Shown: positions 3,823 through 56,011, counted from the stretch's first letter. The stretch: 64,000 bases of DNA from Alphaproteobacteria bacterium (GCA_017621635.1 JAGASU010000107.1:239-64238); one strand, 5' to 3'. Translations and numbers: made by a program. The notes: generated from the letters alone by a model not told the origin.

Positions 3823-3957
3823 CCCGTTCCGACCAACTTTGTAAGGTGCCTTGTGGGTGCCTTTTTTTATATCTTGAATTTAGTGTTTTATCGGGTGGTT
3901 TCGAACCGTGGTTCGAATCAACGCTTCGTTTAACTTCCGTTAAACGCGCTCCCTCGT
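3823..3957 (+). repeat. 135-bp direct repeat, copy a (terminator hairpin + two perfect palindromes)
   Basis: About 97% identical to 4066..4200. Contains the hairpin AAGGUGCC-UUGUG-GGUGCCUU + U7, and the palindromes TTCGAACC-GT-GGTTCGAA (3900-3917) and CGTTTAAC-TTCC-GTTAAACG (3927-3946). Confidence 0.85.
3843..3868 (+). terminator. Intrinsic terminator inside repeat copy a
   Basis: 8-bp stem with two G-U pairs that only form in plus sense, followed by T7. Confidence 0.6.
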
Positions 3958-4065
3958 TTCGGATTTCTAATGTTTCAGAAAACGGATTAATCCTTTTTCT
4001 AAAACATAACAAATCTCTCACCTTCGGGCAAAAAACAATTCCCCAAATTGTTTTTTATCCCTCAG

Positions 4066-4200
4066 CCCGTTCCGACCAACTTTGTAAGGTACCTTGTGGG
4101 TGCCTTTTTTCGTATCTTGAATTTAGTGTTTTATCGGGTGGTTTCGAACCGTGGTTCGAATCAACGCTTCGTTTAACTTCCGTTAAACGCGCTCCCTCGT
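4066..4200 (+). repeat. 135-bp direct repeat, copy b
   Basis: Same unit 243 bp downstream of copy a. Its G-to-A change turns a G-U pair of the terminator stem into A-U. Confidence 0.85.
4086..4110 (+). terminator. Intrinsic terminator inside repeat copy b
   Basis: AAGGUACC-UUGUG-GGUGCCUU followed by T6. Confidence 0.6.
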
Positions 4201-4231
4201 GTCTAAATTACAAAGTTTTCTTAAGAATATA

Positions 4232-4260
4232 TTGATTATTTGCCGTTATTATGGTATAAA
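4232..4260 (+). promoter_or_regulatory. Sigma70-like promoter of the repeat/GNAT protein gene
   Basis: TTGATT, 17 nt spacer, TATAAA, about 60 nt upstream of the ATG at 4321. Confidence 0.45.
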
Positions 4261-4320
4261 ATATATAAAAATTGCGTGAAAAATGCGCTTAGGCGTCAAG
4301 AACAACGAGAGGAGTTTATT

Positions 4321-7029
4321 ATGGCAGATTATGTAACTTTAGGCAACCTGATAATGAAAAATCCTAAAGCGGCGCTAAGTGCTTTTAAATCATTTAAGCA
4401 GGTGTTGAAAAATGATGATAGTAAGAATTTTTCCCTTGCTGAGGCATATAAAACGCTTGGCTATATCATCAAAGGGCAACCTCAATTAGCTAAAGAGGTT
4501 TTGGATTCCTTTAACGTTGGTTTACAAAATGAAAATAATGACAAGTTTTCTTTTATGAATGCATACACAATACTTGGCGGTATCATTGAAGAACAACCGC
4601 AATTAGCTAAAGAGGTTTTGGAGGCTTTTAAGCTTGGGGTGCAGAATGAGAAGAATAACGGGGATTCCTTGTTTGACGCGTACGAAAATCTACGCTTTAT
4701 CGTTGAAGAACAACCGCAATCAGCTAAAGAGGTTTTAGAGATTTTTAATGTCGGGTTACAGAATGAAAATAATAATTTCTGGTCTGTTGGAAAAGCATAC
4801 GAAACGCTTGACTTTATCGTTAAAGCGCAACCGCAATCAGCTAAAGAGGTTTTAGAGCTTTTTAATGTCGGGTTACAGAATAAAAATAATAATTACAGCT
4901 CTCTTGAAAAAGCATACGAAATACTTGACTTTATCGTTAAAGCGCAACCGCAATCAGCTAAAGAGGTTTTAGAGATTTTTAATGTCGGGTTACAGAATGA
5001 AAATAATAATTACAGCTCTCTTGGAAAAGCATACGAAACGCTTGGCGATATCGTTAGAGCGCAACCGCAATCAGCTAAAAAGGTTTTAGAGTCTTTTAAT
5101 ATCGGGTTACAGAATAAAAAGAATACTTACAGCTCTCTTGGAAAAGCATACGAAACGCTTGGCGATATCGTTAGAGCAAAACCGGAACTAAGCAAGGAAA
5201 TAACTTATCTTGTTCTTAATAGTGAGAGTTTGGACTGTCCCGAGGCTCTGAAAATTTTGTCTCCGTGTTCCAAAAAAGCAAAGCTCGATGAGTTGTTAAG
5301 TCAGGTTAATGAAAACGACTCCCAGCGGCAAGAGAAAACAAACACGCTGAAAGCAGCGTATGCGCTTCGTTTTTCAACCGTAGATGAATTAAAATATGTG
5401 TTAGACAAAGAAGACAATGATATGGCAAAAATATCACAAATGCGCTTTTCTGCCCAACAAAGATGTATGAACGTTTTAATGAACGAGCTTGGCAAAGAAA
5501 CCGGCGTTTCTAAAGAAGAGAGTATGTCATACCGTCTAGCGCCGGATGATAACGATTTATACAAAAACAACAAAGACTGGCTTTTGCCGGCAAGTTTTAA
5601 GGCCGCGGAGATTTTCGGGTGTTATTTTCCGTCTTATATCAAGATGGCGGAAAAACATTTATCCATCCACGATGCGGTTTATTGGTTGCCGGAAAAATTA
5701 CATGCAAACAAAAAAGATAGTTTTGCCTCTTTTGTGCAACGGAATTTGGTTTATATGAACGCGGAAGGAAAAACCGTTGCCCGCCCGCTTGCCGAGATGG
5801 AAATTATTTCTAAGAACTGGAACAGCTTAAAACCTGAAGAAGAAAAACTGAAATATAAAGATATTTTGGCGATTTGCCGCAGCAAAAAATATGCGGAGCA
5901 AGAATATGATAGGTTTGCCGCCGAAGCGGCAAAATGGGGTGTTAGTGAAGAGCAATACAAAAACTTTGAAAGCGTTTACAAAGCGGGGCTGAGTGTGCCG
6001 GAGCCGTTTGACAGCAGCAAAGAATTTAAATTTGGTGCTTATACGGGGCGTTTTTTGCCCAGAGATGATGTCCGCACCGGATTTTTCGGCGGATATACGG
6101 ACTGTTGCCAACATTTTGACGGGGTGGGCAAAGCTTGCGCCATCTCGACCATCAAAGACCCGTACTCCCAACTTTTTGTGATTGAAAATAAAGACGGACG
6201 GATTATTTCCGGCAGTTGGGTTTGGGAAAACACCGAGGGGAAATATCGCGACGTTTGCTTTGATAACATTGAGGCTATCGGCGATTATGAGAAAAACCCG
6301 GTGGTCAACAAAATTTATGATATGGTCGGCAAATATCTGACAAATGAAGCGAGTTGCCACAAAGTGACGATTGGCGTGGGGTATCAAGATGCGGATATTT
6401 CCAAATATGCCCCAACAGAGAGCATATCGTTGCCTCAAGCTTATGGCGATAAATACAGCGATGCGAAAGGACAGCAGGTTTTACTTTGTGAAAACAAACA
6501 CGCCTCAGAGCTTGACAAGACGGCGGAAAGCAAGCGCTTTATCCGCGATATTTGCTTTTTGGACGAAGATGCGATGGACAAAGTTTCCGAGCAATGTTTC
6601 CCAGAGGGCGACCAGACTTTGATGATGCCGGACAGACCTTCCGGCTTGGCGCTCGTTGACGAATATAAGGGTGTTGTCGGTTACTGCTTGTATGACAAGG
6701 ATGAAAAACATATTTACGATATGGCAGTTTTGCCGGAATATCGCAAAGATAAAAACGCCTCATCAGGTAAATTGTTTGCCGAAACCATGCGCCGGGTTAA
6801 AGAACTTGGCGGCGAGTGGCACGCTGAATTAAGAGATAAGACGACTTATCGCTATTTGGACGTTATGGCCAAACGCGGGCTTGTGACATACGAAACACAC
6901 GGCGTTGACCGCGAGATGAGCGACGGCAGCAAGGTTTATGCCGTCAGCTTTAAGCCTGTCTCTGATGAACGTACCGCAAAGAGAGAGAGCAATGTTGCCC
7001 CCTCTCTTCACGGTTCAACACGAGAATAG
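4321..7029 (+). CDS. Large repeat protein: eight 39-aa alpha-helical-looking tandem repeats, a central unknown Cys-containing domain and a C-terminal GNAT-like acetyltransferase domain
   Basis: ATG at 4321 is preceded by GAGAGGAG (the ORF track starts upstream at 4240). The repeat AYETLGDIVRAQPQSAKEVLEIFNVGLQNENNNYSSLGK occurs 8 times. C-terminus (about 6646-6958) is VVGYCLYD..HIYDMAVLPEYRKDKNASSGKLFAETM..YLDVMAKRG, which looks like a GNAT fold. Confidence 0.8.
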   Translation: MADYVTLGNLIMKNPKAALSAFKSFKQVLKNDDSKNFSLAEAYKTLGYIIKGQPQLAKEVLDSFNVGLQNENNDKFSFMNAYTILGGIIEEQPQLAKEVLEAFKLGVQNEKNNGDSLFDAYENLRFIVEEQPQSAKEVLEIFNVGLQNENNNFWSVGKAYETLDFIVKAQPQSAKEVLELFNVGLQNKNNNYSSLEKAYEILDFIVKAQPQSAKEVLEIFNVGLQNENNNYSSLGKAYETLGDIVRAQPQSAKKVLESFNIGLQNKKNTYSSLGKAYETLGDIVRAKPELSKEITYLVLNSESLDCPEALKILSPCSKKAKLDELLSQVNENDSQRQEKTNTLKAAYALRFSTVDELKYVLDKEDNDMAKISQMRFSAQQRCMNVLMNELGKETGVSKEESMSYRLAPDDNDLYKNNKDWLLPASFKAAEIFGCYFPSYIKMAEKHLSIHDAVYWLPEKLHANKKDSFASFVQRNLVYMNAEGKTVARPLAEMEIISKNWNSLKPEEEKLKYKDILAICRSKKYAEQEYDRFAAEAAKWGVSEEQYKNFESVYKAGLSVPEPFDSSKEFKFGAYTGRFLPRDDVRTGFFGGYTDCCQHFDGVGKACAISTIKDPYSQLFVIENKDGRIISGSWVWENTEGKYRDVCFDNIEAIGDYEKNPVVNKIYDMVGKYLTNEASCHKVTIGVGYQDADISKYAPTESISLPQAYGDKYSDAKGQQVLLCENKHASELDKTAESKRFIRDICFLDEDAMDKVSEQCFPEGDQTLMMPDRPSGLALVDEYKGVVGYCLYDKDEKHIYDMAVLPEYRKDKNASSGKLFAETMRRVKELGGEWHAELRDKTTYRYLDVMAKRGLVTYETHGVDREMSDGSKVYAVSFKPVSDERTAKRESNVAPSLHGSTRE
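4327..5262 (+). repeat. In-frame tandem repeat, period 117 bp x 8 (units from 4678 onward nearly identical at DNA level)
   Basis: The AY dipeptide recurs at aa 69, 108, 147, 186, 225, 264 and 303 of the ORF. Long identical DNA stretches (gcaaccgcaatcagctaaagaggttttagag..) are visible. Confidence 0.9.
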
Positions 7030-8749: not shown

Positions 8750-8913
8750 TTATATTTATACCTCTTATCTCAAAAATATCTGAATTTTTTCTGTTTCTAT
8801 GATTTTAAAAATTACCCACTTTGTCAACATATTTTTTATTTTAAGCTTGCAATTATTTTTTTATACAGTAACTTTTAAGGGTTATATAACATTAATTTTA
8901 TAGGATGAGAATT

Positions 8914-9654
8914 ATGCACAAAGACAATATTATCACTGTATTGATTTCGGTTATCGCGAGTGTGGTCGTTTCGGTTGCGCTTGCTTCTGTCGTTGCCGGT
9001 AAAAGTTCTACTGCCGCAGGCGGTCAGAATATGAATCAGGCTATTGAAGATTATTTGATGAACAATCCGCTTAAGGTACGTGAAGCTTTGGTTTTGGCTG
9101 AACAGCAAGAACAAATTGAAGCTCAAAAACGTATTGCCGAAAGCTATAAAGCAAACATCAAAGAACTTAATAACGCTGAAAATTCTCCTTTCGTCGGCCC
9201 GAAAAATGCTAAAGTAACGATTGTTGAATTTTTTGACTTTAACTGCGGTTACTGCAAACGTTTAGCTCCGACAATGATGAAAGTTATCAAAGCTAATCCG
9301 GATGTTAAGTTTGTCTTTAAGCCGGTTACTTTCCTTGGTTCTTTACCGACCGCCAAAGCTGCCATGGCTGCTCATAAGCAAGGCAAGTTTATAGAAGTTT
9401 ATGAAGCTTTGCTCACTCATAACGGCCAAATTACTCCGGCTGTTATTGACGAAGTTATTAAATCTGCCGGCTTGGATGTTGCCAAGACAAAAGAGATCAT
9501 GGAAAGCAAAGAAATCAAAGATGCTTTGGATGATATCACAAACCTTTCTCAGAAAGTCAGCATCCGCGGCGTTCCGACTTTGATTATCAATGGCGAACCT
9601 TTACAAGCTATTGACCAAGGTCCGATTCAAAACGCTATCGACAATGCTAAATAG
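8914..9654 (+). CDS. DsbA-family thiol:disulfide oxidoreductase with N-terminal membrane anchor (paralog 1)
   Basis: CGYC active site in FFDFNCGYCKRL and a cis-Pro region GVPTLIING. ATG at 8914 has an AGGA 8 nt upstream; an alternative ATG lies at 8905. Confidence 0.85.
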   Translation: MHKDNIITVLISVIASVVVSVALASVVAGKSSTAAGGQNMNQAIEDYLMNNPLKVREALVLAEQQEQIEAQKRIAESYKANIKELNNAENSPFVGPKNAKVTIVEFFDFNCGYCKRLAPTMMKVIKANPDVKFVFKPVTFLGSLPTAKAAMAAHKQGKFIEVYEALLTHNGQITPAVIDEVIKSAGLDVAKTKEIMESKEIKDALDDITNLSQKVSIRGVPTLIINGEPLQAIDQGPIQNAIDNAK

Positions 9655-9672
9655 TTTGGTTTGATTTGTTTT

Positions 9673-9698
9673 GAGGAGCCTTTCGAGGCTCCTTTTTT
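9673..9698 (+). terminator. Intrinsic terminator
   Basis: GGAGCC-TTTCGA-GGCTCC followed by T6. Confidence 0.75.
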
Positions 9699-9783
9699 AT
9701 GCTTATTTTAAAAAGCTGTTGCAAAAATTATATAAGCGACTAAACTAATGGTGTTTTTGAAAAACTATGGGAGAATTGAATTG

Positions 9784-10656
9784 ATGAAGACATTACTTAA
9801 AATGTTAGGGATTATTGTTTTGGGTTCAATCGGGGCGGGTGCCGTGATTTATATGAATGATAATTGCCCGCAAAAACAAGCAAAAGAGCAGGCTAAACTC
9901 AACACGGCCATTGCGAAATATATAGAAAACCACCCTAAAGAAATTTTAGAAAAAATTGCCAAGAGCGAAAACTTTGGTGAAACAATTAAGAATTTCTCAG
10001 TATCCGATGATGAAGAGCTAAACCAAAAAATTCGGACAATAACGGATGAGGCTGTTAATAACAAAATTGAATTGATTGCACAAAAAGCCAATGAACTTAA
10101 AGAAAAAGAAAACGAAGCTAAAGTATCTGAAAACCAGATTTTTATTGACAATTGGGATAAAATTACCAAAAGTGAAGCAGCGCCTTTTGTCGGTCCCAAA
10201 GAGGCTCCGGTTGTCGTGGCCGAATTTTTTGACTTTGCCTGCGGACACTGCAAATCTCTGGCTCCGATTGTAGCGCAATTAATCAAGAATAATCCAGATG
10301 TCAAGTTTGTCTTTAACCCGCTTTATTTTATCAGCGAACACTCTAATTATGCGGCAACAGCAGCAATGGCAGCGGCTCAAAAAGGAAAATTTCTGGAAGT
10401 TTATGAAGGTATTATGACTTTACCGCAAATGAACGAAGAAACGATTAACCAGATTTTGGTTGATGAAGGGCTTGACGTCAATGAAATCAAAAAAATGATG
10501 AATGATAAAAAAATCCGCCGCGGTTCGCAGGATATTGACGCTTTATCACAAATTCTCGGTATTAACGGTGTCCCGATGATTTTGATTAACGGTGAAGCTT
10601 TTTACGGCAGAAATTTGCAAGATTTTCAAAATAAAATTAACAGTTTGAAAAACTAA
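9784..10656 (+). CDS. DsbA-family thiol:disulfide oxidoreductase with anchor and coiled-coil linker (paralog 2)
   Basis: CGHC in FFDFACGHCKSL and GVPMILING. The start at 9784 (MKTLLKML) was chosen over 9748 because of the GGGAGA upstream. Confidence 0.8.
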   Translation: MKTLLKMLGIIVLGSIGAGAVIYMNDNCPQKQAKEQAKLNTAIAKYIENHPKEILEKIAKSENFGETIKNFSVSDDEELNQKIRTITDEAVNNKIELIAQKANELKEKENEAKVSENQIFIDNWDKITKSEAAPFVGPKEAPVVVAEFFDFACGHCKSLAPIVAQLIKNNPDVKFVFNPLYFISEHSNYAATAAMAAAQKGKFLEVYEGIMTLPQMNEETINQILVDEGLDVNEIKKMMNDKKIRRGSQDIDALSQILGINGVPMILINGEAFYGRNLQDFQNKINSLKN

Positions 10657-10658: not shown

Positions 10659-10697
10659 AAAAAAAATCCCCAGCTTAAAAAGCCGGGGATTTTTTTA
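10659..10697. terminator. Bidirectional intrinsic terminator between convergent genes
   Basis: A8-TCCCCAG..CCGGGGA-T7. The stop codon of the minus-strand gene lies in the T-run. Confidence 0.75.
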
Positions 10698-11501
10698 CAC
10701 AATTTTCTGACTTGCTGTTTTTAAAATACCGTTTGGGGTGCATTTTAAATAAACGAGTGCATTGTCTTCATAAAAATAAATTCCCATATCGCCGATATCG
10801 TAGTAATTTAACTCCCGATAACGCAATGGCTCATCTTCTCCGGTATACAGACCGTAAAGCTTATAAATCCCCTCAGTTTTTACAAGCAGAAGCTCATCCG
10901 GTGCGCTTTTGCCGCTTAACGGGGTTGTTATGCCAAAGTTTTTATAAAAAAAGCTTTGCACTGTCAGATGTTCTCTTCTGCCGTCTGCCAAAATGCTTAA
11001 CTGTTTTTTGTCTGCGTTTTCTTCATTTACAAACAATGTTTTTCCTAAACGGTATCCCATTTTTACGGGAGGTTTGTCTTCTGCACAGAGATAATACCAA
11101 CTTTTAGTATAATTGTCTTTAAATATCAGAAAACCGATGTTTGTTCCCAGAGCCTGTGTAAAGGTTTCGTAGTCTGTTGCGACATACATTTCGTGATTAC
11201 GAGGATCTATCAGTTCATAGGTTATTTGAGATTTTGTTTTTTTGGAAAAAACATATATTTCGCCTTTATAAAGCTTTATAACTTCTGTCGGCCGACAAAA
11301 CGGCGCTAACAAGATAAACCCCAAAATTCCGATGACTGCAACAGCACTCCCCAAACACATTTTTGCCGTGACACATAACACGATGCAAACGGCAACAACC
11401 AGCAAAAAAGCAATTTTTCGAAAGCTTAGTACGCCCGAATAACCGGTTAGCAATGTCGGTTCCCCAAAACGGGACCAACACCATTCATAATTTGTTTTCA
11501 T
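10695..11501 (-). CDS. Membrane protein, paralog family member 1 (2 N-terminal TM helices + about 190-aa domain)
   Basis: Shares architecture and the W(Y/F)Y..(L)GK(R/T) motif (KSWYYLCAEDKPPVKMGYRLGKTLF) with the next two genes. Confidence 0.7.
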   Translation of the reverse strand: MKTNYEWCWSRFGEPTLLTGYSGVLSFRKIAFLLVVAVCIVLCVTAKMCLGSAVAVIGILGFILLAPFCRPTEVIKLYKGEIYVFSKKTKSQITYELIDPRNHEMYVATDYETFTQALGTNIGFLIFKDNYTKSWYYLCAEDKPPVKMGYRLGKTLFVNEENADKKQLSILADGRREHLTVQSFFYKNFGITTPLSGKSAPDELLLVKTEGIYKLYGLYTGEDEPLRYRELNYYDIGDMGIYFYEDNALVYLKCTPNGILKTASQKIV

Positions 11502-11542
11502 AATGTATATTTTTTAGTTAATAATAATTATTTAGCGATGAA

Positions 11543-11570
11543 AATATACAAGATTTTTAACTTTTGTCAA
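11543..11570 (-). promoter_or_regulatory. Sigma70-like promoter of paralog 1
   Basis: On the minus strand: TTGACA, 16 nt spacer, TATATT, about 40 nt upstream of the ATG. Confidence 0.55.
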
Positions 11571-11580
11571 GTTTTGTTTC

Positions 11581-11613
11581 AAAAAAAATCTCTGTGCTTA
11601 AAGCACAGAGATT
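11581..11613 (-). terminator. Intrinsic terminator of paralog 2 (stop codon in the hairpin loop)
   Basis: AATCTCTGTGC-TTAA-AGCACAGAGATT with a U8 run in minus sense. The TAA stop at 11598-11600 is in the loop. Confidence 0.7.
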
Positions 11614-12446
11614 TCTTCATCACCTATAGGAGACAAATCCATTCTTCGGGCAAGAACTTCATATTCCCCGTTTTGATTACAAATCAATGCAATACCTGTT
11701 TCTGCATTGCGGGCGGTCAAAACCTTGGCTTTAACAGGAAAACATTTAGCAGACTCCGCAGTGCTGCGATTTAATGCGATGCCGTAAACCTCAAATTTTC
11801 CATGATATTCCACCACGAAATAATCATCAATTTGTAAAGGAACATCTTCACCTGTTTGCAAATAGCAACTGTCTACCTGAAAATAGAGATTATCAGCCGG
11901 TATTTCCATCGCAAAGCCATCATTCAAGGCCAATAACAGTCCTTCTTTCGGGGAAAAGAGTGTTGGTTTAATCCTTTTACCCAATTTAATCAACTCATTA
12001 TCAGCATAACTGGTTAAATACCAATTTTTCTCACCATAAGGGCGGTACATTAAATTTTTTTGTGTTTCCAAAAACTTTGCCGCATAATTTGCAACTTTGC
12101 AGAAAGTTGTTCCTTTGCTTCTTGGCAATTCTTCTGGTCCTACCGGTTCCTGCTCGATCATCTCCAGAAGAAAATATCCCCCTCTTTCCAAAACATATAC
12201 TTTGTAAGAGGTGAAATTTCTTCGAATATAAAAGCAGTCTTTGGCACAACAAAGCTCTATGAGATCCAGATAAACTATAATCAGAATCGGAATACTGAAA
12301 AGAGTAGAGAATATTATATTCCCTTCACACGCATAGAGTACTATCACCACCAGACCAATCAGAGCAATCAACGAAGCATCTAAAATTTTTCTGTACGCAG
12401 AGAGGCGACCTAATTCCTGCCATCGCCATAAAGTTTTTTTCTTCAT
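11598..12446 (-). CDS. Membrane protein, paralog family member 2
   Basis: Two TM helices, then KNWYLTSYADNELIKLGKRIKPTLF. Confidence 0.7.
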   Translation of the reverse strand: MKKKTLWRWQELGRLSAYRKILDASLIALIGLVVIVLYACEGNIIFSTLFSIPILIIVYLDLIELCCAKDCFYIRRNFTSYKVYVLERGGYFLLEMIEQEPVGPEELPRSKGTTFCKVANYAAKFLETQKNLMYRPYGEKNWYLTSYADNELIKLGKRIKPTLFSPKEGLLLALNDGFAMEIPADNLYFQVDSCYLQTGEDVPLQIDDYFVVEYHGKFEVYGIALNRSTAESAKCFPVKAKVLTARNAETGIALICNQNGEYEVLARRMDLSPIGDEEISVL

Positions 12447-12490
12447 AATTTATATTTTTTTAATTAACAAAATAATTTTTTAGTATGGGT

Positions 12491-12518
12491 AGTATATGCG
12501 AAACATTTTTTTTGTCAA
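12491..12518 (-). promoter_or_regulatory. Sigma70-like promoter of paralog 2
   Basis: On the minus strand: TTGACA, 16 nt spacer, TATACT. Confidence 0.5.
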
Positions 12519-12529
12519 GTTTTTTATAT

Positions 12530-12566
12530 AAAAAATCCCCCTGCCCGAAAAACGGGCGGAGGATTT
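12530..12566 (-). terminator. Intrinsic terminator of paralog 3
   Basis: GC-rich hairpin (CCCGAAAAACGGG core extended by ATCC../..GGAT) with a U-run in minus sense. Confidence 0.6.
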
Positions 12567-12570
12567 TTAA

Positions 12571-13425
12571 TTAACCAATGGTTGGGGCTTTTAAGCTTAT
12601 ACGCACCTGCAGCTCTTGTTCTGCCGTTTCACTTGCTAAAACAAGCACTTTGCTGTTTTCCTTTAGAACCACCACTGAGGGTGATACGACGGCAAACATA
12701 GGCAAAGCGCAATTCTCGCTATTTTCCATAGCGGAATACAAAGTATATGTCTCTTCATTTTTTAAGAGCACATATGTATCGCTCCAGTGCAATACATCCG
12801 GCAATTTTGCATTTGACTTTACCACAACTTCCTTGAGGCCTGTTATGTGACGTTTACTGCTTATGACATATAAACCGTCTTTTAAGGTAAAGTATTGGTC
12901 ACATTCAAAACTTTGAAAACCGTTAACATATTGTAAAAAGCTGACTTTTTGTTTTCCGGTTATTGAATCTTTGAATGCGTAGACTGTATCGCCTATCCGT
13001 TTGCCAAGCCGCTGAGGCTCTTTATGAAATTCGCTAAAATAAAACCATTCTTCATCTTTTTGATAAAGAAAATACACATTTTCTTGTTTAATGTAGCGAT
13101 CGGCTTTGATTGACCAGTTTTTTTCACCTAGTACTTCTATGAAAAATTTGTTTTTTTGTTCATAGACAAAAACTTTCGCAAAAGCTTCGTTTTCAAGTTC
13201 TATTTCAAACGCGTCATATGGCATTATGACTTGTCGGAGTATGAATATCACCACCAACAAAACAGGCACAACCCATAGAAAACCAAAGAGTTCCGGCATA
13301 CTCGTCATCACCCAAGTACAACAGCCCAGCACCCCAAACAAAAACAGATTTTCGAACTTTAATACGGCTTTCCAAGCCGACAAGTTAAGTAAACGACTTG
13401 GTCGCATTTTTTTAAAAGTCTTCAT
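12571..13425 (-). CDS. Membrane protein, paralog family member 3
   Basis: Two TM helices, then EEWFYFSEFHKEPQRLGKRIGDTVY. Confidence 0.7.
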   Translation of the reverse strand: MKTFKKMRPSRLLNLSAWKAVLKFENLFLFGVLGCCTWVMTSMPELFGFLWVVPVLLVVIFILRQVIMPYDAFEIELENEAFAKVFVYEQKNKFFIEVLGEKNWSIKADRYIKQENVYFLYQKDEEWFYFSEFHKEPQRLGKRIGDTVYAFKDSITGKQKVSFLQYVNGFQSFECDQYFTLKDGLYVISSKRHITGLKEVVVKSNAKLPDVLHWSDTYVLLKNEETYTLYSAMENSENCALPMFAVVSPSVVVLKENSKVLVLASETAEQELQVRISLKAPTIG

Positions 13426-16369: not shown

Positions 16370-16816
16370 TTAAGCAAAATTTTCCATAATATTATGCTTG
16401 TTTTTGGGGTCTTTGACAAGCATGGTGGTTACGGGAGCCGATGAATATTTTTGAAATAACAGGCCGTGTCCCAAGCATAAGCCAAAATCAATATTAAAAT
16501 CAGTTTGGCAATTGTTTAAGTACTCGGCTTGAGATTTCGGGTCACACGAAAGACCTTTCATTTCTGATGACAATTCGGAAGCTTCCAGTTTTGATTCCTT
16601 ACAATTAACGCTTAAAACCTCTATTCCCTCGCTTTCGAGCAAGGTTTTGAGCTTGAGGGCGGCGGCGTCAACCGAGAAGCAATTAGCCAGCCCTATTTTT
16701 TTATAACCGCTCAGCTTAATAAAGTTAATCAGCTCTTGTAAGCGAGAAGCGCTGCGGGTTTGGTTTGTTTTTAACATAAATTCAACGTCTTCTTTGCTAT
16801 AATGTCCTTTTTCCAT
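16370..16816 (-). CDS. DUF1847-like metal-binding protein
   Basis: Size and Cys pattern (..GLANCFS.., ..VNCKES.., ..FGLCLGHG..) match my recollection of DUF1847. Confidence 0.5.
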   Translation of the reverse strand: MEKGHYSKEDVEFMLKTNQTRSASRLQELINFIKLSGYKKIGLANCFSVDAAALKLKTLLESEGIEVLSVNCKESKLEASELSSEMKGLSCDPKSQAEYLNNCQTDFNIDFGLCLGHGLLFQKYSSAPVTTMLVKDPKNKHNIMENFA

Positions 16817-16836
16817 GGTCGTCCTTTAAAAAAATA

Positions 16837-16988
16837 GGCTCGATTAAACAATTTTGTTGAAATAAAATTTAATTTATAATTTGTGTGCTTCGCACGAGTC
16901 GTGGATTACCACGCGTATGAGCCTTACGGCAACGCTCGTAATGACTCGGGGTGAGCTGTGTCTTTCAACAAAATTGTTTAACTTAGCT
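16837..16988. mobile_element. MITE-like element, about 150 bp, 19-bp terminal inverted repeats, carrying two REP-like hairpin modules (copy A)
   Basis: ATTAAACAATTTTGTTGAAA (16843-16862) and TTTCAACAAAATTGTTTAA (16963-16981). Same architecture as 43627..43777 and 55681..55836. Confidence 0.8.
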
Positions 16989-17101
16989 AAAAAATATTAA
17001 CAGTTCGTCAGTTATAGTATAACAACTTTAAAATAATACAAGACTTTTGAACGGTGTTATTCTATGATTATAGTGGATTTATCAGATGAGATAGGGAAAA
17101 A

Positions 17102-18478
17102 ATGAGTAAATTTTTATCTTTCTGGCCTTTGAGCGCTTATAATGCGGCGGCTTTTTTGCGGTCACAATTGTTTTTATTGCCGGTGTTGTTGTTTTTTTAT
17201 CAGGAAAACGGGTTAAGTGTCGGTGATTTTTATCTTATTCAGGGGCTGATTGTCTTTTTTGCCTTTTTGTTTGAAATTCCCGCCGGATATTTGGGAGATA
17301 TTTTCCCGAGAAAATATATTTTAATCACGGCGTATTCGTTGTTTTTGTGCCGATTGTTTTTATGGATTTTTTTTAGAGGGTTTGAGGTTATTTTAATCGG
17401 TGAGTTTTTTTATGCTTGCTCCAAGGCTTGTTTTGACTCGGTTTCGTCTTCGTTTATTTATGACATTTTGAAAAAAAACGGCGAAGAAAAAAAGATGGTC
17501 AAGGCTTATTCCAACTTTAACGCCGCGATGTATATCGGGACGGGAATCGCCGCACTTTTGGGCGCCGGACTTTATGAAAAATTTGGTTCGCAGGTTTTGC
17601 TGATTGCCGAGTTTGTGATTTATTCGGCGGCGGTGCTGCTGCTTGCAATGCTGCCGAATGCGCATATTCCGGCCAAGGTAACACTCGGATTTAAGGAAAG
17701 AATTAAGAAATTTTGGGTGGCGGTGCGCTATATTTTAAAATCACGGAAATACTGTTATTTTGTGTTGTTTTCGGGATTTATGGTCGGGGTGTCGCACTTT
17801 TTCTTTTGGAGTTTTCAGCCATTAATGAAAGCTTCGGGGATTAACCCGAAAGTATCGCTCACGGATTTGGCTGACAGCGTCGGCTGGGACGCCAGAGTTT
17901 TCGGGGAGACGGTTTGGAATTATCTTTTGGCGCTTGACTGGCTTGACTATATTAAAGTGATGGGCGTGGTGATTTTTATCAACAACGTTCTTCGCTCGTC
18001 TTTTAGCTATTTTGCGGCAGGAGTTGCCAAAAGGGTGTCGTTGTTTGTGTTGGGCAATATTTCATTTGTGATGGAAATTATCGGCTGCGGGCTGTCTTTT
18101 TGGTTAATGAAAATGGGACATATCAGTCCGGTGCAATGTTTGGCGTTTATTGTCTTTTTGTGTGTTTGTATCGGGATTCAGCTGATGTTTACCATTACTC
18201 ATATCAGTAGATTACATCGGCTCATTAACCCTAAAATCAGGTCATTATCATCGTCGGTGAATATGATGACGGGACGGCTTTTAACCTCGTTTATGCTGAT
18301 GGCGCCGAAGTTTTTATTAAAACACCAAGAGGGGGCCGCGGGGGTTAAGGTGATTGATATTTTTTGGATTTACGCGATTGTGTTTGTGCCGGTCGGGTGT
18401 TATTTTATTTATAAAATTTATAAATATAACGTCAGGGGCGATAATGCGCTTTTAAATGCCGGCAGCGCAAAGGACTAA
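17102..18478 (+). CDS. MFS-type transporter
   Basis: About 12 predicted TM segments and a GDIFPRK-type loop after TM2. Confidence 0.7.
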   Translation: MSKFLSFWPLSAYNAAAFLRSQLFLLPVLLFFYQENGLSVGDFYLIQGLIVFFAFLFEIPAGYLGDIFPRKYILITAYSLFLCRLFLWIFFRGFEVILIGEFFYACSKACFDSVSSSFIYDILKKNGEEKKMVKAYSNFNAAMYIGTGIAALLGAGLYEKFGSQVLLIAEFVIYSAAVLLLAMLPNAHIPAKVTLGFKERIKKFWVAVRYILKSRKYCYFVLFSGFMVGVSHFFFWSFQPLMKASGINPKVSLTDLADSVGWDARVFGETVWNYLLALDWLDYIKVMGVVIFINNVLRSSFSYFAAGVAKRVSLFVLGNISFVMEIIGCGLSFWLMKMGHISPVQCLAFIVFLCVCIGIQLMFTITHISRLHRLINPKIRSLSSSVNMMTGRLLTSFMLMAPKFLLKHQEGAAGVKVIDIFWIYAIVFVPVGCYFIYKIYKYNVRGDNALLNAGSAKD

Positions 18479-18482
18479 CGTT

Positions 18483-20474
18483 ATGCGGCGGATATGGTTT
18501 TTGGCGTTTTTTTTATTGATGAGGGTTTTGCCTGTTCAATGTGCTGATATTTCGCTTAAAATCTCAGCGGAAGAAGGTTGGACGGCCTGGGGCGATTATA
18601 TCTTAGGGCAAGATTTGAAACAGGGATTTGAGAAGCTGAACTATTCGGTTGAGCCGTCTTATATCGGCAATTTTTACCCTAAAGGGAGTGAGGATTGTTT
18701 GATTGATGTTTATATGCACGGGTTTGTGCCGTTTAATATTCCGTTAAAAAAAGGGAAAACGAACGTGCTTTATCTTTATTATCCGCTGGAAACGGCACAA
18801 AGTTCTAAATACCGGAATTTAAAAGACGTGCAAGAGCCGGCGTGGTATTCGCTTCAAACGGAATTATGGGATTTTGATGTGATTGCGGTTGCTTCGCCGA
18901 CTTATATGAAAGAAATTGAGAAGTTAGGGATTAAGACGGTATTTGCGCCACAGTTTACTAACCCTGATAAGTTTTTTTATGAATATGACAAAGACAAAGC
19001 TTTTGATATTTTATTTGTGGGGCGGCCGGGGTATGAACGTATCAGCGCTCAATGGGCGCTTGACAACGGGTTTGATGTGGCGCTTTTCGGCAGTGGGTGG
19101 CAGAATACGGCGTTTGCCGACCACTTTAAAGGAGATTATATTGATAACAACGAACTGCATACTTATTATGCTTCGGCGAAGATTGTCTTAAACGACACCA
19201 GAGAGGATATGAAAAAAGCGGGGTTTATCAGCAATCGGGTGTTTGATGTGACGGCAAGCGGCGGTTTTCTTATCTCGGATTATATGAAAGAGATTGAGGA
19301 TTTTTATGGGGACGCTATCCCGATGTTTCAAACCAAAGAGGAGTTAAAAGGGCTTCTTGATTATTATCTTAAGCACCCTGAGGAACGGGCTGAGAAAGCC
19401 AAAGCGGCGCAAGAGATTACCTTAAAGTATTTTACCAATACGGCGGTAGCGGACAGTATTCTTAAAGCGGTGCAAGAGGTCAGAGCTAAGAAAGGGGAGC
19501 TTGATTTTCATAAAATTGCGATTAAAAGCCCGTGGGGCGAAAACAATTATGCGCTGGGGGATTATTGGCTCGGGCTTGATTTGGAAAAAGGACTTAGAGA
19601 GAATGGGGTCGAGGTTAAAAACTACTATTATAACGGGGGATTTGGCGTTGATGATTTTTATGAGCAAGCGGGTAATTTGCTTTATTTGCAATTTAAGTAT
19701 AACCATATTATGAAAGAAGACGAGCGTAAAAATAAAATTATGTATCTTTATTTTCCGACGTTTGTGCCGAAGCGGGGGAAGTTTAAGAACGGAGAGGAGA
19801 AGTTTTTATATAACACTGATGCTTTTTTGGACAATGAGCTTGAGTATTTTGATTTGATTGCGACACCGGCGAAAAGAACGTTTGAAGAACTTAAAGAACA
19901 AGGGTACAAGACGGTGTTTGTGCCACAGTTTACCAACGCGGATAAGTTTAAGCGAGAGGCGGTGGAAGATTTAAAAACAGATTTATTATTTGTCGGCTCT
20001 ACCTGGTATGAGCGGGTCAGCGCAAAATATGCGGCTGAGCTTGGCTATAACTTAGCGGTTTACGGTTTGAAATGGGAAGGAAAGATTGATAAAAAATTTA
20101 TTAAGGGGACGTTTATTGATAATCGGGAGTTAAACAAATATTATTCTTCCGCCAAAATTGTTTTAAGCGATCATGCAGATGATTTGGGCGAGATGGGGCT
20201 GGTGATTAACCGGATTTATGATGCGACGGCGGCGGGGACGATGGTTATTTCCAAGTACAGCCCGTATATTGAGGAGATTTTCGGCGACAGCGTGCCGATG
20301 TTTAAGACTAAAGAGGAGTTTGAAGCGCTGGTTGATTTTTATTTGGCGCACAATGAGGAAAGGGAAAAGAAAGCCAAGGCGGCACAAAAAATTACGTTTC
20401 AAGGATATACCAACAAAATTATCGGGGCTAAATTTAAGGAACTTTTTTATCTTTTAGAGAAGGAGAAGCAATGA
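18483..20474 (+). CDS. Internally duplicated CgeB-like/Glyco_trans_1_2 domain protein with N-terminal signal/anchor
   Basis: The two halves (aa about 1-335 and 336-660) align. Each ends with ..SAKIVL(N/S)D....G(F/L)(I/V)(S/I)NR(V/I)(F/Y)D(V/A)TA(S/A)G... ATG at 18483 (MRRIWFLAFF). Confidence 0.65.
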   Translation: MRRIWFLAFFLLMRVLPVQCADISLKISAEEGWTAWGDYILGQDLKQGFEKLNYSVEPSYIGNFYPKGSEDCLIDVYMHGFVPFNIPLKKGKTNVLYLYYPLETAQSSKYRNLKDVQEPAWYSLQTELWDFDVIAVASPTYMKEIEKLGIKTVFAPQFTNPDKFFYEYDKDKAFDILFVGRPGYERISAQWALDNGFDVALFGSGWQNTAFADHFKGDYIDNNELHTYYASAKIVLNDTREDMKKAGFISNRVFDVTASGGFLISDYMKEIEDFYGDAIPMFQTKEELKGLLDYYLKHPEERAEKAKAAQEITLKYFTNTAVADSILKAVQEVRAKKGELDFHKIAIKSPWGENNYALGDYWLGLDLEKGLRENGVEVKNYYYNGGFGVDDFYEQAGNLLYLQFKYNHIMKEDERKNKIMYLYFPTFVPKRGKFKNGEEKFLYNTDAFLDNELEYFDLIATPAKRTFEELKEQGYKTVFVPQFTNADKFKREAVEDLKTDLLFVGSTWYERVSAKYAAELGYNLAVYGLKWEGKIDKKFIKGTFIDNRELNKYYSSAKIVLSDHADDLGEMGLVINRIYDATAAGTMVISKYSPYIEEIFGDSVPMFKTKEEFEALVDFYLAHNEEREKKAKAAQKITFQGYTNKIIGAKFKELFYLLEKEKQ

Positions 20475-33913: not shown

Positions 33914-33951
33914 AGCCCTGCCCTGTATTATAGATACAGGGCTTTTTTTTT
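33914..33951. terminator. Intrinsic terminator (bidirectional context)
   Basis: AGCCCTG..CAGGGCT hairpin flanked by A4 and T9. Confidence 0.7.
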
Positions 33952-33958
33952 ATTTCGG

Positions 33959-34326
33959 TTATGATTGATAAGGAATGCTTCGCATAAGTTATGGATTGCC
34001 GCGCGTATGTGTGACTGACGTCACGGACGCTCGCAATGACTCATGGAGAAGGACGTTTGTATTGAGGGGCTTGTTCTGCTCTAGCAGCACTAAGAGAAGT
34101 TTGTACCGCTACGAAAAGCTATGCTTTTCTACTTGTACGAACAACTAACCTTTGCTTCGGTCGTTCCTCCCTAGCAAAGCTAAGAGAAGTTTGCCGCGGC
34201 GATATGTGACTTACGTCACGTGCCTCGCAATGACTCGAGAGGGAAACTGTTAGAAAGGCTGGCGTCGCGGGGCTTGTAATGACTCGAGTTGAGCGCGTCT
34301 TTCAACAAAATTGTTTAATTAAGCTT
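33959..34326. repeat. Composite array of REP-like hairpin modules ending in one MITE terminal repeat (copy E)
   Basis: Contains GTTATGGATTGC..GTGAC-TGAC-GTCAC..CTCGCAATGACTC, two AGCAAAGCTAAGAGAAGTTTGC-type hairpins, GAAAAGC-TAT-GCTTTTC and the right TIR TTTCAACAAAATTGTTTAA. Confidence 0.8.
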
Positions 34327-43563: not shown

Positions 43564-43579
43564 TTTACGCTGTAAGGTA

Positions 43580-43609
43580 AAACCTCGGAAAATATCCGAG
43601 GTTTTTTTA
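43580..43609 (+). terminator. Intrinsic terminator
   Basis: ACCTCGG-AAAATAT-CCGAGGT followed by T7. Confidence 0.8.
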
Positions 43610-43626: not shown

Positions 43627-43777
43627 GGTTCTATTAAACAATTTTGTTGAAATACAATTTAATTTATAATTTGTGTGCTTCGCACGAGTTATGGATTGCT
43701 TCGGTTATTGCCTTACGGCTTACCTCGCAATGACTCGGGCTGTGTCTGTTTTTCAACAATTTTTTTTAACCAAGCTT
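43627..43777. mobile_element. MITE-like element (copy B)
   Basis: Left TIR ATTAAACAATTTTGTTGAAA at 43633-43652, internal REP unit GTTATGGATTGC..GCC-TTAC-GGC..CTCGCAATGACTC, and a degenerate right TIR. Confidence 0.75.
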
Positions 43778-50345: not shown

Positions 50346-50374
50346 TTAGTCACATCCTTTATTTATGTTCAAAC

Positions 50375-50576
50375 AAAAAACCCGCTTAAAAATTAAGGCG
50401 GGCGGATGCTGGAAAACCATAGTACAAGATTATGGCTCGGCTTATTTGGATAAAACCTTATTTGCCGACATCCGCCCATCACAAGCTAAGATATCGGCAC
50501 AAATTTTCAGTCGAGTGCTTACGACTTCTTGTACTTAAGGGTTTCCAGGCCCTAGGTCTTGTTTTTTGCAAGACTT
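50375..50576 (-). ncRNA. Structured RNA element, copy 1 (about 200 nt; unknown family; possible cis-regulatory leader of 49746..50345)
   Basis: Promoter-like TTGCTT, 16 nt spacer, TAATCT (50583-50610). Also a 5' A-loop hairpin, a closing helix, internal hairpins, a pseudoknot/antiterminator helix and the intrinsic terminator CCCGC(C)TTAA-TTT-TTAAGCGGG+U6. See findings. Ends are approximate. Confidence 0.6.
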
Positions 50577-50582
50577 GTCTTA

Positions 50583-50610
50583 AGATTAGCATATAAAAAA
50601 AAATAAGCAA
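50583..50610 (-). promoter_or_regulatory. Promoter-like signal for RNA copy 1
   Basis: On the minus strand: TTGCTT, 16 nt spacer, TAATCT. The -35 also forms part of an AU-rich hairpin followed by U9, so its role is ambiguous. Confidence 0.35.
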
Positions 50611-50659
50611 GTCTTTTTAGTTGCTTATTTTATTTAAACTTAAATTTAATTGAATAAAT

Positions 50660-50866
50660 AAAAAACCCGCGCAATAAGTCAGGCGGGTGGACGCTGGAAA
50701 ACCATAAGTACAAGAAAAATGGCCCGACCTTTCAGGTATGACCTATCGGCCGACATCCACCCCTTATGAGTTAAGACATCGGCACTGTTTTTAAAGTCGC
50801 GTGCATACGACTCTTGTACTTTTAAGGGCTTCCAGACCCCAGATATCGTTTTTTTCGATATCCGAG
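50660..50866 (-). ncRNA. Structured RNA element, copy 2 (about 205 nt, paralog of copy 1)
   Basis: Same architecture as copy 1, with compensatory changes. Terminator is CCCGC..GCGGG+U6 at 50660-50687. Ends are approximate. Confidence 0.6.
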
Positions 50867-50870
50867 ATAT

Positions 50871-50899
50871 GTTTTAGTTTGTTATTATGTATTTGGCAA
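50871..50899 (-). promoter_or_regulatory. Promoter-like signal for RNA copy 2
   Basis: On the minus strand: TTGCCA, 17 nt spacer, TAAAAC, ending about 7 nt before the 5' hairpin. Confidence 0.4.
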
Positions 50900-54037: not shown

Positions 54038-54043
54038 AGAATT

Positions 54044-54074
54044 TCCCCGCGGGAAGACCTGCGGGGATTTTTTT
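54044..54074 (+). terminator. Intrinsic terminator of aspS
   Basis: TCCCCGC-GGGAAGACCT-GCGGGGA followed by T7. Confidence 0.85.
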
Positions 54075-54077
54075 ATA

Positions 54078-54144
54078 GCAACGCTAAAGCGTTTAGTTAT
54101 GGATTGCTTCGGTTATTGCCTTACGGCTTACCTCGCAATGACGC
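54078..54144. repeat. Solo REP-like hairpin unit (copy C)
   Basis: AACGC-TAAA-GCGTT hairpin, then GTTATGGATTGC..GCC-TTAC-GGC..CTCGCAATGAC. The core is identical to the unit inside copy B. Confidence 0.8.
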
Positions 54145-54211
54145 AGGAGGGAGTGACGTTGCAACCCCGCGATAATGTGAGAGGTGTTGATTAAACAAAA
54201 GTCACTTAAAA

Positions 54212-55660
54212 CTAATCTATTTCTTTGCCGTAGAGCAGTTTATTATAGATTGCGGATTGTTTTTCCAGCTCGCTGTTTAGAGTATCCAAGCCTAATTTTT
54301 CCAACAAGGTTTGTTCGCCTGAAAACAATGAAACACCTAAGCCCAGTTTATGGCCGTCTATTTTATAGCCCAGCCCTTCCAAAATGGTTGGCATTGTATC
54401 AAGTGCGGTAAAACGACGGTTTTTAGCATATGGTGTTTCTTTGAAGACAGAGTTGATATAAACATTATATATCGGGCGTTCCATATTTTTTGAAAAGATT
54501 GTACTGCTCATGGTCGGGTGATCACCAACGATGACGATTTCGGTGTTTTCATAAAAAGGCTGCTGTGTCAGCCAATCAACAAAAGCGGATATTTGCAGGC
54601 TTGAACAGGAAACAACATTTTTAAAATATTCCTCATCTTTGATTTTGGCGTCATGATATTTGATTTGACAATTTTCCTTAGAGAAATGTTCATTGCCGAA
54701 ATGCGTATCCAGCGTCATCAACGTCATAAAAAACGGTTTATCCTGCTTGCTTAAAACGGCCAGTTCTTCTTTTGCATAAGCAAACAATTTTGCGTCACGC
54801 ACAATTCTTTTACGGCGAGGATCCGTTGCTGCGGAAAGGTTATCTCTTTTGGCATAAAAATCCCAATCAAGGATTTTGGCTTTACCATGCGTTTCAATAA
54901 ATTTATCGGTTCCGGCAAACTCACGGCTCATACCGTTTAAGAAACTTTGGGTATAACCTTCTTTTGCCAAAATATCGGGTAAACATATTGCTTGAGGGAG
55001 AAAACCATTTATCGGGTGATAACGGCGGACATTAACCGGAAGCCTTAACGGAATAGCGCATAACTGAGCCACCAAAGAAGCCTGCGTGTAATTAGCGCCG
55101 TTAATATTGCTAAACCCGCCAAAACCTTCCGTGTGGCTGAAACTGATATTGTTTTGAGCTATTTTTTGTAATTCGGGAATAAGATTTACCCCAAAATAAC
55201 TCTCATTTGCGTACGAAACATCCATTGATTCGGCAAAAATCATAATCAGATTTCGTTTTTGAGCGGGCGGGGTTATTTTAACCAGTGATGTGTCTGCATA
55301 ATTTTTCTCGTATAAATCGCCCATCACCCCGTGGCTATGATATTCGTTTATAATGCGGGGAATGTCCATTTTATGATAACCGGCGACTAACGAAAATAAA
55401 AAGAAGACAACCGCAAAGCCCAGACATTTGGCAGGTGAGATTTTGCGAGCGACAAAAAATAAGATAACCGTTATGATAGAACTCATCAGGAGCGTGTTTT
55501 GCAAATAGCTGTATACCAGTTTTATTTCCGTATCCAAGGGGACGTTTAGGTGAAAGATAATTTGTTCGTAGGTTACCTCGCCAAATTTACGCGGAATCCA
55601 GTTTGCGGTTGAGAAAATCATATATCCGAAAAATACTAATAACAGCGATAATATTTTCAT
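54212..55660 (-). CDS. Sulfatase-superfamily membrane enzyme (LtaS/phosphoglycerol-transferase-like)
   Basis: N-terminal TM bundle plus an extracellular domain with FAESMD.., LDTHF and VIVGDHP. Confidence 0.75.
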   Translation of the reverse strand: MKILSLLLVFFGYMIFSTANWIPRKFGEVTYEQIIFHLNVPLDTEIKLVYSYLQNTLLMSSIITVILFFVARKISPAKCLGFAVVFFLFSLVAGYHKMDIPRIINEYHSHGVMGDLYEKNYADTSLVKITPPAQKRNLIMIFAESMDVSYANESYFGVNLIPELQKIAQNNISFSHTEGFGGFSNINGANYTQASLVAQLCAIPLRLPVNVRRYHPINGFLPQAICLPDILAKEGYTQSFLNGMSREFAGTDKFIETHGKAKILDWDFYAKRDNLSAATDPRRKRIVRDAKLFAYAKEELAVLSKQDKPFFMTLMTLDTHFGNEHFSKENCQIKYHDAKIKDEEYFKNVVSCSSLQISAFVDWLTQQPFYENTEIVIVGDHPTMSSTIFSKNMERPIYNVYINSVFKETPYAKNRRFTALDTMPTILEGLGYKIDGHKLGLGVSLFSGEQTLLEKLGLDTLNSELEKQSAIYNKLLYGKEID

Positions 55661-55680
55661 AACAGTTCCTTTTTTATTTT

Positions 55681-55836: not shown

Positions 55837-56011
55837 TTATTTTAAGTCCGGTGGTTAGTTTAGGATGAGCGGCCGTAAAAACAATTTTATAGTTCTTTTT
55901 ATACACAACATACGGAATTGAGATTTTTGTTAATAAACGCATAAAATAAATACATTTCTTTTTAAACTGATTATAAAAAGCTCATAGTAAGATTTTACCG
56001 GAGAGAGTGTT

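Follow-up and report, generated by a model that had tools for sequence, protein, structure and literature searches.

Long-stem hairpin repeats, partly carried by miniature transposable elements, in an alphaproteobacterial contig: a probable variant of the CGTC-tagged class

The subject of this report is a hairpin repeat found at seven loci in 64,000 nucleotides of DNA from an Alphaproteobacteria bacterium (GCA_017621635.1, JAGASU010000107.1:239-64238; the whole of this stretch is hereafter the window), whose closest described counterparts are the CGTC-tagged repetitive extragenic palindromes (REPs) and the Neisseria NTS hairpin. As described in the survey by Di Nocera, De Gregorio and Rocco (2013, BMC Genomics 14:522; PMC3733652), CGTC-tagged REPs have an unpaired CGTC or TGTC (also CCTC) head, a stem that starts with A-T and a CCA tail; the stems are uninterrupted and 8-9 bp long with loops of 4-5 nt, head-to-head dimers dominate and tandem arrangements are negligible. 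They occur mostly in Alphaproteobacteria, the Neisseria repeat dRS3 is equivalent to CGTC-1, and no tyrosine transposase is reported beside them in the species surveyed. NTS (CGTCATTCCCGCGMAVGCGGGAATCYRG, an oriented dRS3) and related Ssn-related motifs (SRMs) flank the Neisseria gene ssnA (Chenal et al. 2025, Nat Commun 16:2388, PMC11893778), the product of which is a 94-aa single-domain GIY-YIG protein (cd10448); the association of such hairpins with ~94-aa GIY-YIG genes is therefore already published. SsnA binds the hairpin as single-stranded DNA (ssDNA) only, and on the CGTC strand only, cuts a few nucleotides upstream of it, and ignores double-stranded DNA and RNA. The 3 nt upstream of the palindrome are the most critical for cutting and the C after the palindrome for binding, and transformation by NTS-bearing DNA is lowered by SsnA (PMC11893778). 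The sequence used to search for SRMs, HGTCWYN(0-2)YYVSBRHN(0-5)WNVSBRGN(0-2)RNCYNB, is a heuristic drawn from 29 genomes and not a functional definition (PMC11893778).

The window unit is best explained, with a probability of roughly 0.7, as a long-stem, lineage-specific variant of this CGTC-tagged REP and SRM class, carried in part by miniature inverted-repeat transposable elements (MITEs), with an Ssn acting on its − strand foot.

Anatomy and covariation of the hairpin unit

A sequence-only reading of the window had described a modular hairpin family at seven loci, and these loci contain what was described. Units of the form GTTATGGATTRC–hairpin–CTCGYAATGACTC occur as nine full and about four partial copies in the 64-kb window, all on the + strand, against about one expected by chance. 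GTTATGGATTRC has nine matches (0.68 expected), and CTCGYAATGAC, with at most one mismatch, has 13 (1.36 expected), of which 12 are real and all +. A covariance model was built from an alignment of eight full copies and run on the window with filters off; it returned nine strong copies, scoring 45.7-73.7 bits, and two weak partial remnants, again all +, and its only matches on the − strand were two at chance level (9.9 and 8.3 bits; E 3.8 and 8.1).

Each unit is 45-55 nt long overall and its interrupted stem has three tiers: a 5-bp foot (ATTRC/GYAAT), a middle stem of 3-4 bp and an apical stem of 3-6 bp, with a 3-nt/2-nt internal loop above the foot and an apical loop of TTAC or TGAC. A small accessory hairpin stands on the tail side of the window units. 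Read from the − strand, the unit is (A/C)GTC-ATTRC…GYAAT-CCA, and it is in this orientation that the core hairpins are assigned to the − strand below.

The pairing of R with Y in the foot, proposed by the sequence-only reading, is perfect in the eight aligned copies (five G-C and three A-T, zero mismatches). Over 14 stem pairs, 93.4% of cells are paired, compared with 79.9% in shuffles and 26-48% in slid controls, and compensatory changes on both sides are seen in six of the 14 pairs, the R/Y pair among them, so that the stems do vary while staying paired, as had been claimed. The GTC that precedes the stem and the CC(A) that follows it on the − strand are invariant in all eight copies, variable as the stems are; at the first position of the head, six of the copies have A (GAGTC) and two have C (54094, 62411). 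The invariant positions, GTC-AT…AT-CC, are the SRM determinants, and they coincide with the positions that determine binding and cutting by SsnA (PMC11893778). The folding energies of individual hairpins are weak (z +0.4 to −2.9); single copies being thermodynamically unexceptional, the case for structure rests on covariation and not on energy. At the gathering threshold, Rfam gave two tRNAs only in the window and no match at the repeats, and searches of full-text literature with the repeat sequence strings returned primer noise only. Readings as integron attC sites or CRISPR-like repeats were dropped, there being no RYYYAAC/GTTRRRY pair; the tandem arrays in one compared locus (L066) have 8-nt "spacers".

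A foot shared across phyla and its Ssn-like neighbours

The sequence-only reading had taken the family to be specific to this genome, which did not hold, as the hairpin foot is common to bacteria of many phyla. A scan of one genome per species with the pattern GGATTRC-N15-45-CTCGYAATGAC gave at least 120 matches. Those listed come from Alpha-, Beta-, Gamma- and Deltaproteobacteria, Bacteroidota, Chloroflexota, Cyanobacteria, Firmicutes, Patescibacteria, Spirochaetes, Gemmatimonadota, Armatimonadota, Zixibacteria, Ignavibacteriota and others, more than 10 phyla in all. By our own estimate the pattern would have ~2,000 chance hits in 596 Gb. In 143 genome-scan elements among the matches listed, the +1 position is G in 62% or A in 34% (heads CGTC/TGTC), T stands at −1, ahead of GG, in 66%, and TTCG, CACG or CGCG directly follows GGATTGC in 91%; because none of these features is forced by the pattern, the matches carry a family signature despite the expected chance hits. 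The ATTGC/GCAAT foot is also present in metagenomes and in viral contigs (at least 120 IMG/VR loci, L248-L367). In the viral contigs the hairpin often lies inside long open reading frames (ORFs) on the same strand (23 vs 7), where host contamination of the contigs is possible.

On the other strand the cross-phylum consensus is CGTC-ATTGC…GCAAT-CCAG. Adjacent ATTGC units among the matches listed are arranged head-to-head, with the GAC ends outward, in 86 of 111 pairs, tail-to-tail in 11 and in tandem in 14. The genes between such dimers are ordinary housekeeping genes, with no REPtron-like cassette. When folded as ssDNA, the CGTC strand is better than its complement in 354 of 426 unique elements, by a mean of 0.67 kcal/mol, which agrees with that strand being the one recognised, though loop parameters alone might cause the difference; no G·T wobble asymmetry was found between the strands (78 vs 88 pairs).

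ORFs within 400 bp of hairpins were clustered across ~360 loci, and a cluster of ~95-aa GIY-YIG proteins emerged beside families found everywhere and structural genes of phages. With the first 120 loci alone, the clusters had been only common families and spurious ORFs translating the repeat itself; the GIY-YIG signal came with the metagenome and viral loci. In 2.7 Mb of loci, seven of the eight GIY-YIG genes lie no more than 220 bp from a hairpin, several of them with hairpins at either end. ATTGC-type hairpins flank the ~95-aa GIY-YIG genes at four loci that were found through the repeat (L127, the L128 group, L164 and L235). When homologues were instead chosen without reference to repeats, CGTC-type hairpins were found within ~50 nt of the gene in five of five contigs, four of which carry ATTGC or ATCGC types and one the canonical ATTCCCGC type. 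Both ATTGC and ATCGC types are present at the Ottowia locus, tandem ATTGC/ATCGC units at that of Chlorobium phaeovibrioides, where their number differs between strains, and ATTGC-type hairpins flank the gene in an uncultured taxon; unit number differs likewise between same-species samples in Ottowia. In Rhodocyclus purpureus (GCA_016653115.1, locus L393, 1140-3046), 16 alternating ATTGC/ATCGC units occupy 2 kb around the Ssn-like gene. The foot pair covaries in these arrays also (ATTGC/GCAAT vs ATCGC/GCGAT; L368-L382, L393). The sampled proteins are 95-97 aa long with PF01541 as their sole domain, and the locus of one homologue, at 69% identity, has the NTS-type sequence GTCATTCCCGCGAAAGCGGGAATC; the canonical type beside a close homologue of the ATTGC-associated proteins ties the sampled GIY-YIG set to the Ssn family.

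By analogy with the Neisseria pair of NTS and SsnA, the − strand of the window unit, when present as ssDNA, would fold into the three-tier hairpin, exposing a foot composed of an unpaired (A/C)GTC head, the 5-bp ATTRC/GYAAT stem and an unpaired CCA tail; the foot is conserved as the upper stems drift and covary. The source genome would encode, elsewhere, an Ssn, a single-domain GIY-YIG endonuclease of ~94 aa, predicted to bind the foot on the − strand only and to cut the window copies with an ssDNA nick a few nucleotides 5' of the head. Such nicking may affect recombination or DNA uptake and, possibly, the spread of the repeat.

Several observations weigh against this account. The GIY-YIG gene was not found in the 64-kb window, either by tblastn or with a family hidden Markov model on six frames (best E 0.26), and the window repeats may therefore be orphan motifs. 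The sampled GIY-YIG genes are Ssn-like and candidate members of CDD cd10448, and recognition of ATTGC-type hairpins by an Ssn is presumed from canonical NTS and SsnA. The SRM search motif matches no window copy and none of 777 ATTGC-type elements, whereas the canonical NTS control matches, and its sole match in the window is a chance site at 47630; the motif misses the ATTGC subtype because it requires pyrimidines where the subtype has GC. Most window copies have an AGTC head and not CGTC. Compared with CGTC-tagged REPs (PMC3733652), the window stem is three-tiered and far longer than 8-9 bp with a 4-5-nt loop, and the window units are tandem or solitary, with no head-to-head dimers and all 11 model hits co-oriented.

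Packaging, placement and orientation of the copies

Three of the loci are packages of 150-155 bp that align from GGCTCG/GGTTCT to AAGCT. The 19-bp terminal inverted repeats attributed to them earlier are indeed present and extend to ~26 nt (GGCTCGATTAAACAATTTTGTTGAAA … TTTCAACAAAATTGTTTAACTTAGCT), and 8-bp AT-rich direct repeats were found to flank them. MITE copy A (16837-16988, +, 152 bp) has inverted ends and one hairpin unit and is flanked by the target duplication AAAAAATA (8/8) at 16829-16836 and 16989-16996; its SRM-like core hairpin, GAGTC-ATTAC…GTAAT-CCA, lies at 16896-16951 (−, 71.4 bits). Copy B (43627-43776, +, 150 bp), with the duplication TATAAAAA/TAAAAAAA (7/8), contains a core at 43686-43740 (−, 72 bits), and copy C (55682-55836, +, 155 bp), with TTATTTTA (8/8) at 55674-55681 and 55837-55844, contains one of the ATTAC/GTAAT type at 55741-55799 (−, 73.7 bits). 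With inverted ends, target duplications, a length below 300 bp and no coding capacity, these three packages are true MITEs.

A mosaic element of 369 bp (33957-34325, +) ends on the right in the manner of the MITEs and contains, besides GCTAAGAGAAG modules, two hairpin units and a remnant reduced to its head. One of its cores is of the ATTGC/GCAAT type (33986-34046, −, 68.5 bits); the other (34187-34240, −, 45.7 bits) is without the canonical 5' GGATTGC arm and has its head half intact. The element is bracketed by TTTATTTC/TTTATTTT (7/8) and shares its right terminus with the MITEs, of whose family it is probably a long form. In a second mosaic (63630-64000, −), which the window edge truncates, 63723-63782 and 63941-64000 are cores, 63661-63720 and 63790-63852 are remnants, and 63860-63895 is a GCTAAGAGAAG module; as the sequence-only reading had it, modules including GCTAAGAGAAG are common to the two mosaics. 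The remaining loci are a solitary unit (54080-54148, −), with an accessory hairpin AACGC-TAAA-GCGTT and a core at 54094-54148 with the head GCGTC (70.7 bits), and a cluster (62387-62498, −) of a degenerate core (62411-62463, 54.7 bits) and a second accessory hairpin. No parent insertion sequence (IS) of the MITE was identified, there being no match in the plasmid collection or in the other loci compared, and the MITE end and the GCTAAGAGAAG module are likewise absent from all of those loci. The GGCTC… ends and 8-bp AT-rich duplication presumably recall ISL3-family elements. On this account the unit has in this lineage also been taken up by a DDE-type MITE, whose inverted ends are ~26 nt long and whose AT-rich target duplication is 8 bp, so that part of its spread is ordinary cut-and-paste movement into AT-rich spacers behind terminators and before ribosome-binding sites; MITE-borne copies are then a second route for the spread of such nuclease sites.

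The same packaging bears on the possibility that the window copies are orphan, decaying motifs, that is, relics carried passively by the DDE-type MITE and by local duplication, with no cognate nuclease left and no present function. Three copies, and probably the 369-bp mosaic also, are mobile in MITE form and have target duplications, several copies have been shortened or have decayed (34262-34287, 62411-62463, 63790-63852), no ssn gene was found in the 64 kb, and 19% of SRM-rich genomes are without an SsnA homologue (PMC11893778). Relics would not, however, be expected to keep an invariant foot (GTC, ATTRC/GYAAT, CCA) together with compensatory changes in six of 14 pairs, which point to continuing constraint or to very recent copying from functional masters, and units also occur outside MITEs (54080, 62387). 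Passive carriage is on balance unlikely.

The intergenic settings are both divergent and convergent, as first described, with three sites of each kind and a seventh that the window edge truncates. At each convergent site the + strand gene has an intrinsic terminator (33920-33942, 43579-43605 and 54044-54067) and the element comes after it: the 369-bp mosaic just past the first, MITE B between the second and a convergent terminator on the other strand (43806-43785, −), and the solitary unit directly past the third, that of aspS. Of the three divergent sites, two (16837, MITE A, and 55682, MITE C) have the left end of the MITE 20-21 nt upstream of a − strand gene's start codon (16816-16842, 55660-55687); for MITE C the gene is 54212-55660 and the distance is 21 nt. 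Across the inverted end of MITE C lies an outward-pointing, promoter-like hexamer pair (TCAACA-18-TAAAAT). Placement behind terminators and before start codons fits insertion into AT-rich spacers and argues against a role in mRNA. An RNA-level element, whether a 3' untranslated region stabiliser, a terminator or a small RNA made from the MITE, would account for covarying stems, for − strand loops that read GTAA/GTCA (GNRA-like), for the TATAAT-like box ahead of the accessory hairpin in the MITEs, and for the unpaired units of viral contigs lying on the same strand as flanking ORFs (32 vs 11 among the matches listed). Copies at convergent sites, however, stand downstream of the + gene terminator, or between two terminators at 43627, and so are probably outside mRNAs; the repeats have no Rfam match, no sigma-70-like promoter was called on the + strand of the MITEs scanned, and SsnA does not bind RNA (PMC11893778). 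The orientation of unpaired units at bacterial loci is moreover unbiased with respect to flanking genes (18 vs 28 among the matches listed, not significant). An RNA role is accordingly very unlikely.

All seven loci (11 units) have one orientation in the window (two-sided binomial 0.016, with loci treated as independent), and the GC skew is positive throughout, the cumulative skew rising from 0.04 to 1.35. A positive skew suggests that the + strand is the leading strand, in which case the strand cleavable by Ssn, the CGTC strand, would be the C-rich leading-strand template, which is rarely single-stranded. Among the matches listed, unpaired units in viral contigs have GGATTGC on the G-rich strand at 64 of 89 loci, and at 44 of 53 where |skew| exceeds 0.06; since these units also follow the ORF strand, as given above, coding strand and skew are confounded there. 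At the bacterial loci listed, unpaired units show the trend weakly and without significance (54 of 90 loci; counted by unit, 64 of 111). Replication strand is not discussed by Chenal et al. (PMC11893778). That unpaired Ssn-type hairpins are in general asymmetric with respect to the replication strand is thus a doubtful proposition, a lead and not a result, and the uniform orientation relative to GC skew is the one unexplained feature of the window repeats. Selection may act against cuts that the cell's own ssDNA nuclease would make in the lagging-strand template, or the copying mechanism may use ssDNA at the fork. In the former case, head-to-head dimers, as in other genomes, and co-oriented, MITE-borne units, as in the window, would be two different ways out; the bias, if true, bears on how a cell tolerates a nuclease that cuts its own ssDNA.

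Uniform orientation relative to skew is also what would be expected of ssDNA transposition into the lagging-strand template, and the general look of the repeats, as short intergenic hairpins with an unpaired conserved head in mosaic clusters, is that of REPs and bacterial interspersed mosaic elements (BIMEs). The sequence-only reading had accordingly offered mobilisation by a REP-associated tyrosine transposase (RAYT) or, alternatively, a selected structure. Of these, a structure acting in ssDNA is plausible, but mobilisation of a GTAG-type REP or REPIN by a RAYT, an IS200/IS605-like Y1 transposase, is most improbable. The head is (C/A)GTC and not GTAG, none of the 30 window ORFs scanned has a Y1_Tnp/IS200-like, RAYT or other transposase domain, and no recurrent transposase-like family stands beside the hairpins in ~360 loci; in the species surveyed, CGTC repeats were not seen beside tyrosine transposase genes (PMC3733652).

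Differences in presence between relatives, which the sequence-only reading had envisaged at orthologous sites, were found. Three relatives (L245, L246 and L247, with AspRS identities of 95%, 90% and 89%) lack core units throughout the 17-22 kb that is syntenic with the window. In the closest, L245, the site downstream of the META-domain gene is empty, and ~120 bp (62402-62521) is an insertion in the window, without obvious target duplication. The absence of the repeats from syntenic sites of close relatives suggests that the family expanded recently in this lineage. No polymorphism was readable in contigs from four ENA metagenomes (L121-124) that are 99.9-100% identical to the window. Gene content differs as well: in the relatives aspS is directly followed by rpmI-rplT-pheS-pheT, whereas here a sulfatase/phosphoglycerol-transferase-like gene (−) and a CTP_transf_1 gene intervene (54038-56700), the order being aspS, the solitary unit, the sulfatase-family gene, MITE C and the CTP-transferase-family gene. 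The motif-gene-motif layout of this segment resembles that around Neisseria NTS. A main role as landing sites for site-specific recombinases (of the IS110/IS1111 family or Piv-like phage recombinases) has precedents in the targeting of dRS3 (CGTC-1) by a phage recombinase and of REPs by IS elements, as in Coxiella QMITE2 (PMC3733652, PMC11893778, PMC5896051), and would suit the absence from relatives of the genes flanked by units (54212-56674), but it is the least probable account, as no IS110-type gene or prophage abuts any window copy and such use is secondary, leaving the cross-phylum conservation of the foot unexplained.

Next to the hairpin cluster at 62387-62498, ORF 61318-62004 weakly resembles the N-terminal methylation motif of type IV pilins (E 0.004, short of the Pfam cut-off), which may be relevant since SsnA acts on transforming ssDNA in Neisseria; ORF 62648-63244 had no identical record in an exact look-up. 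Elsewhere in the window, two tandem units of ~200 nt (50360-50885, −) are 83% identical, each ending in an intrinsic terminator, with a 5' hairpin that covaries between the copies; both match the Rfam family sRNA-Xcc1 weakly, at 35 and 25.6 bits against a gathering score of 53, and may be a duplicated small-RNA gene. Within the 929-aa ORF 4240-7029, a 117-bp (39-aa) repeat is present in about eight tandem units (4327-5262; listed by the repeat finder as seven overlapping 234-nt copies spaced 117 bp), and just upstream of this array is a direct repeat of 153 nt, 93% identical, at 3823-3975 and 4066-4218. A 672-aa ORF contains an internal duplication with a 975-bp offset (18456-20474), two adjacent thioredoxin/DsbA-like paralogues are encoded at 8905-10656, and at 10695-13425 three neighbouring ORFs are paralogues with no Pfam match, ahead of each of which stands a conserved motif that contains TTGACA (− strand).

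Comparison with known systems

Assignment to the CGTC-tagged REP and SRM class would place an anonymous repeat of an uncultured gut or environmental alphaproteobacterium in the newly defined Ssn/SRM system and replace the default reading in which REP equals RAYT. As the widespread ATTGC/GCAAT hairpins flank Ssn-like genes and escape the published SRM motif, surveys that use this motif may undercount the system, and may miss enzyme and site pairs of possible use as ssDNA tools.

With CGTC-tagged REPs (PMC3733652) the window units share the head class, the A-T in the first two stem positions, the CCA tail, an occurrence mainly in Alphaproteobacteria and the lack of an adjacent transposase, and the cross-phylum ATTGC set shares the mostly head-to-head arrangement (86 of 111 among the matches listed). 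With NTS and SRMs they share an oriented hairpin with an unpaired HGTC head, a stem opening A-T / T-A and a C-rich tail, as well as an intergenic, clustered distribution in numbers that vary between relatives (PMC11893778); the flanking of ~95-aa GIY-YIG genes by ATTGC-type hairpins elsewhere repeats the NTS-ssn-NTS arrangement. They differ in that the stem begins ATTGC/ATTAC… and not ATTCCCGC, has an internal loop and is extended to 45-55 nt, and in that the window is without an ssn gene, shows one shared orientation and carries some copies in MITEs bounded by terminal inverted repeats.

The GTAG REPs, BIMEs and REPINs mobilised by RAYTs in E. coli and Pseudomonas are similar as short intergenic hairpins with a conserved unpaired tetranucleotide that form dimers and mosaics, and in the recognition of the foot, as ssDNA, by an enzyme acting in trans; the head, however, is GTAG there and CGTC here, the enzyme is a HUH Y1 transposase in the one and a predicted GIY-YIG protein in the other, and no RAYT was found in the window. 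For the packaging, the closest likeness is Coxiella burnetii QMITE2, a MITE of 150-190 bp with inverted ends of ~23-29 nt and target duplications of 7-11 bp, which carries a REP hairpin internally and is located in intergenic or 3' positions (PMC5896051). Its passenger is a GTAG REP targeted by IS1111, whereas here it is a CGTC/SRM-type hairpin, and the window MITE ends (GGCTCG…) are unrelated to those of QMITE2. The mosaics at 33957-34325 and 63630-64000 resemble the intergenic mosaic elements of Neisseria (dRS3-bounded RS arrays), in which CGTC-type hairpins are interleaved with other short modules and adjoin variable gene content; the module sequences are different, and the window hairpins are tandem and co-oriented in place of the inverted pairs that bound each module in Neisseria.

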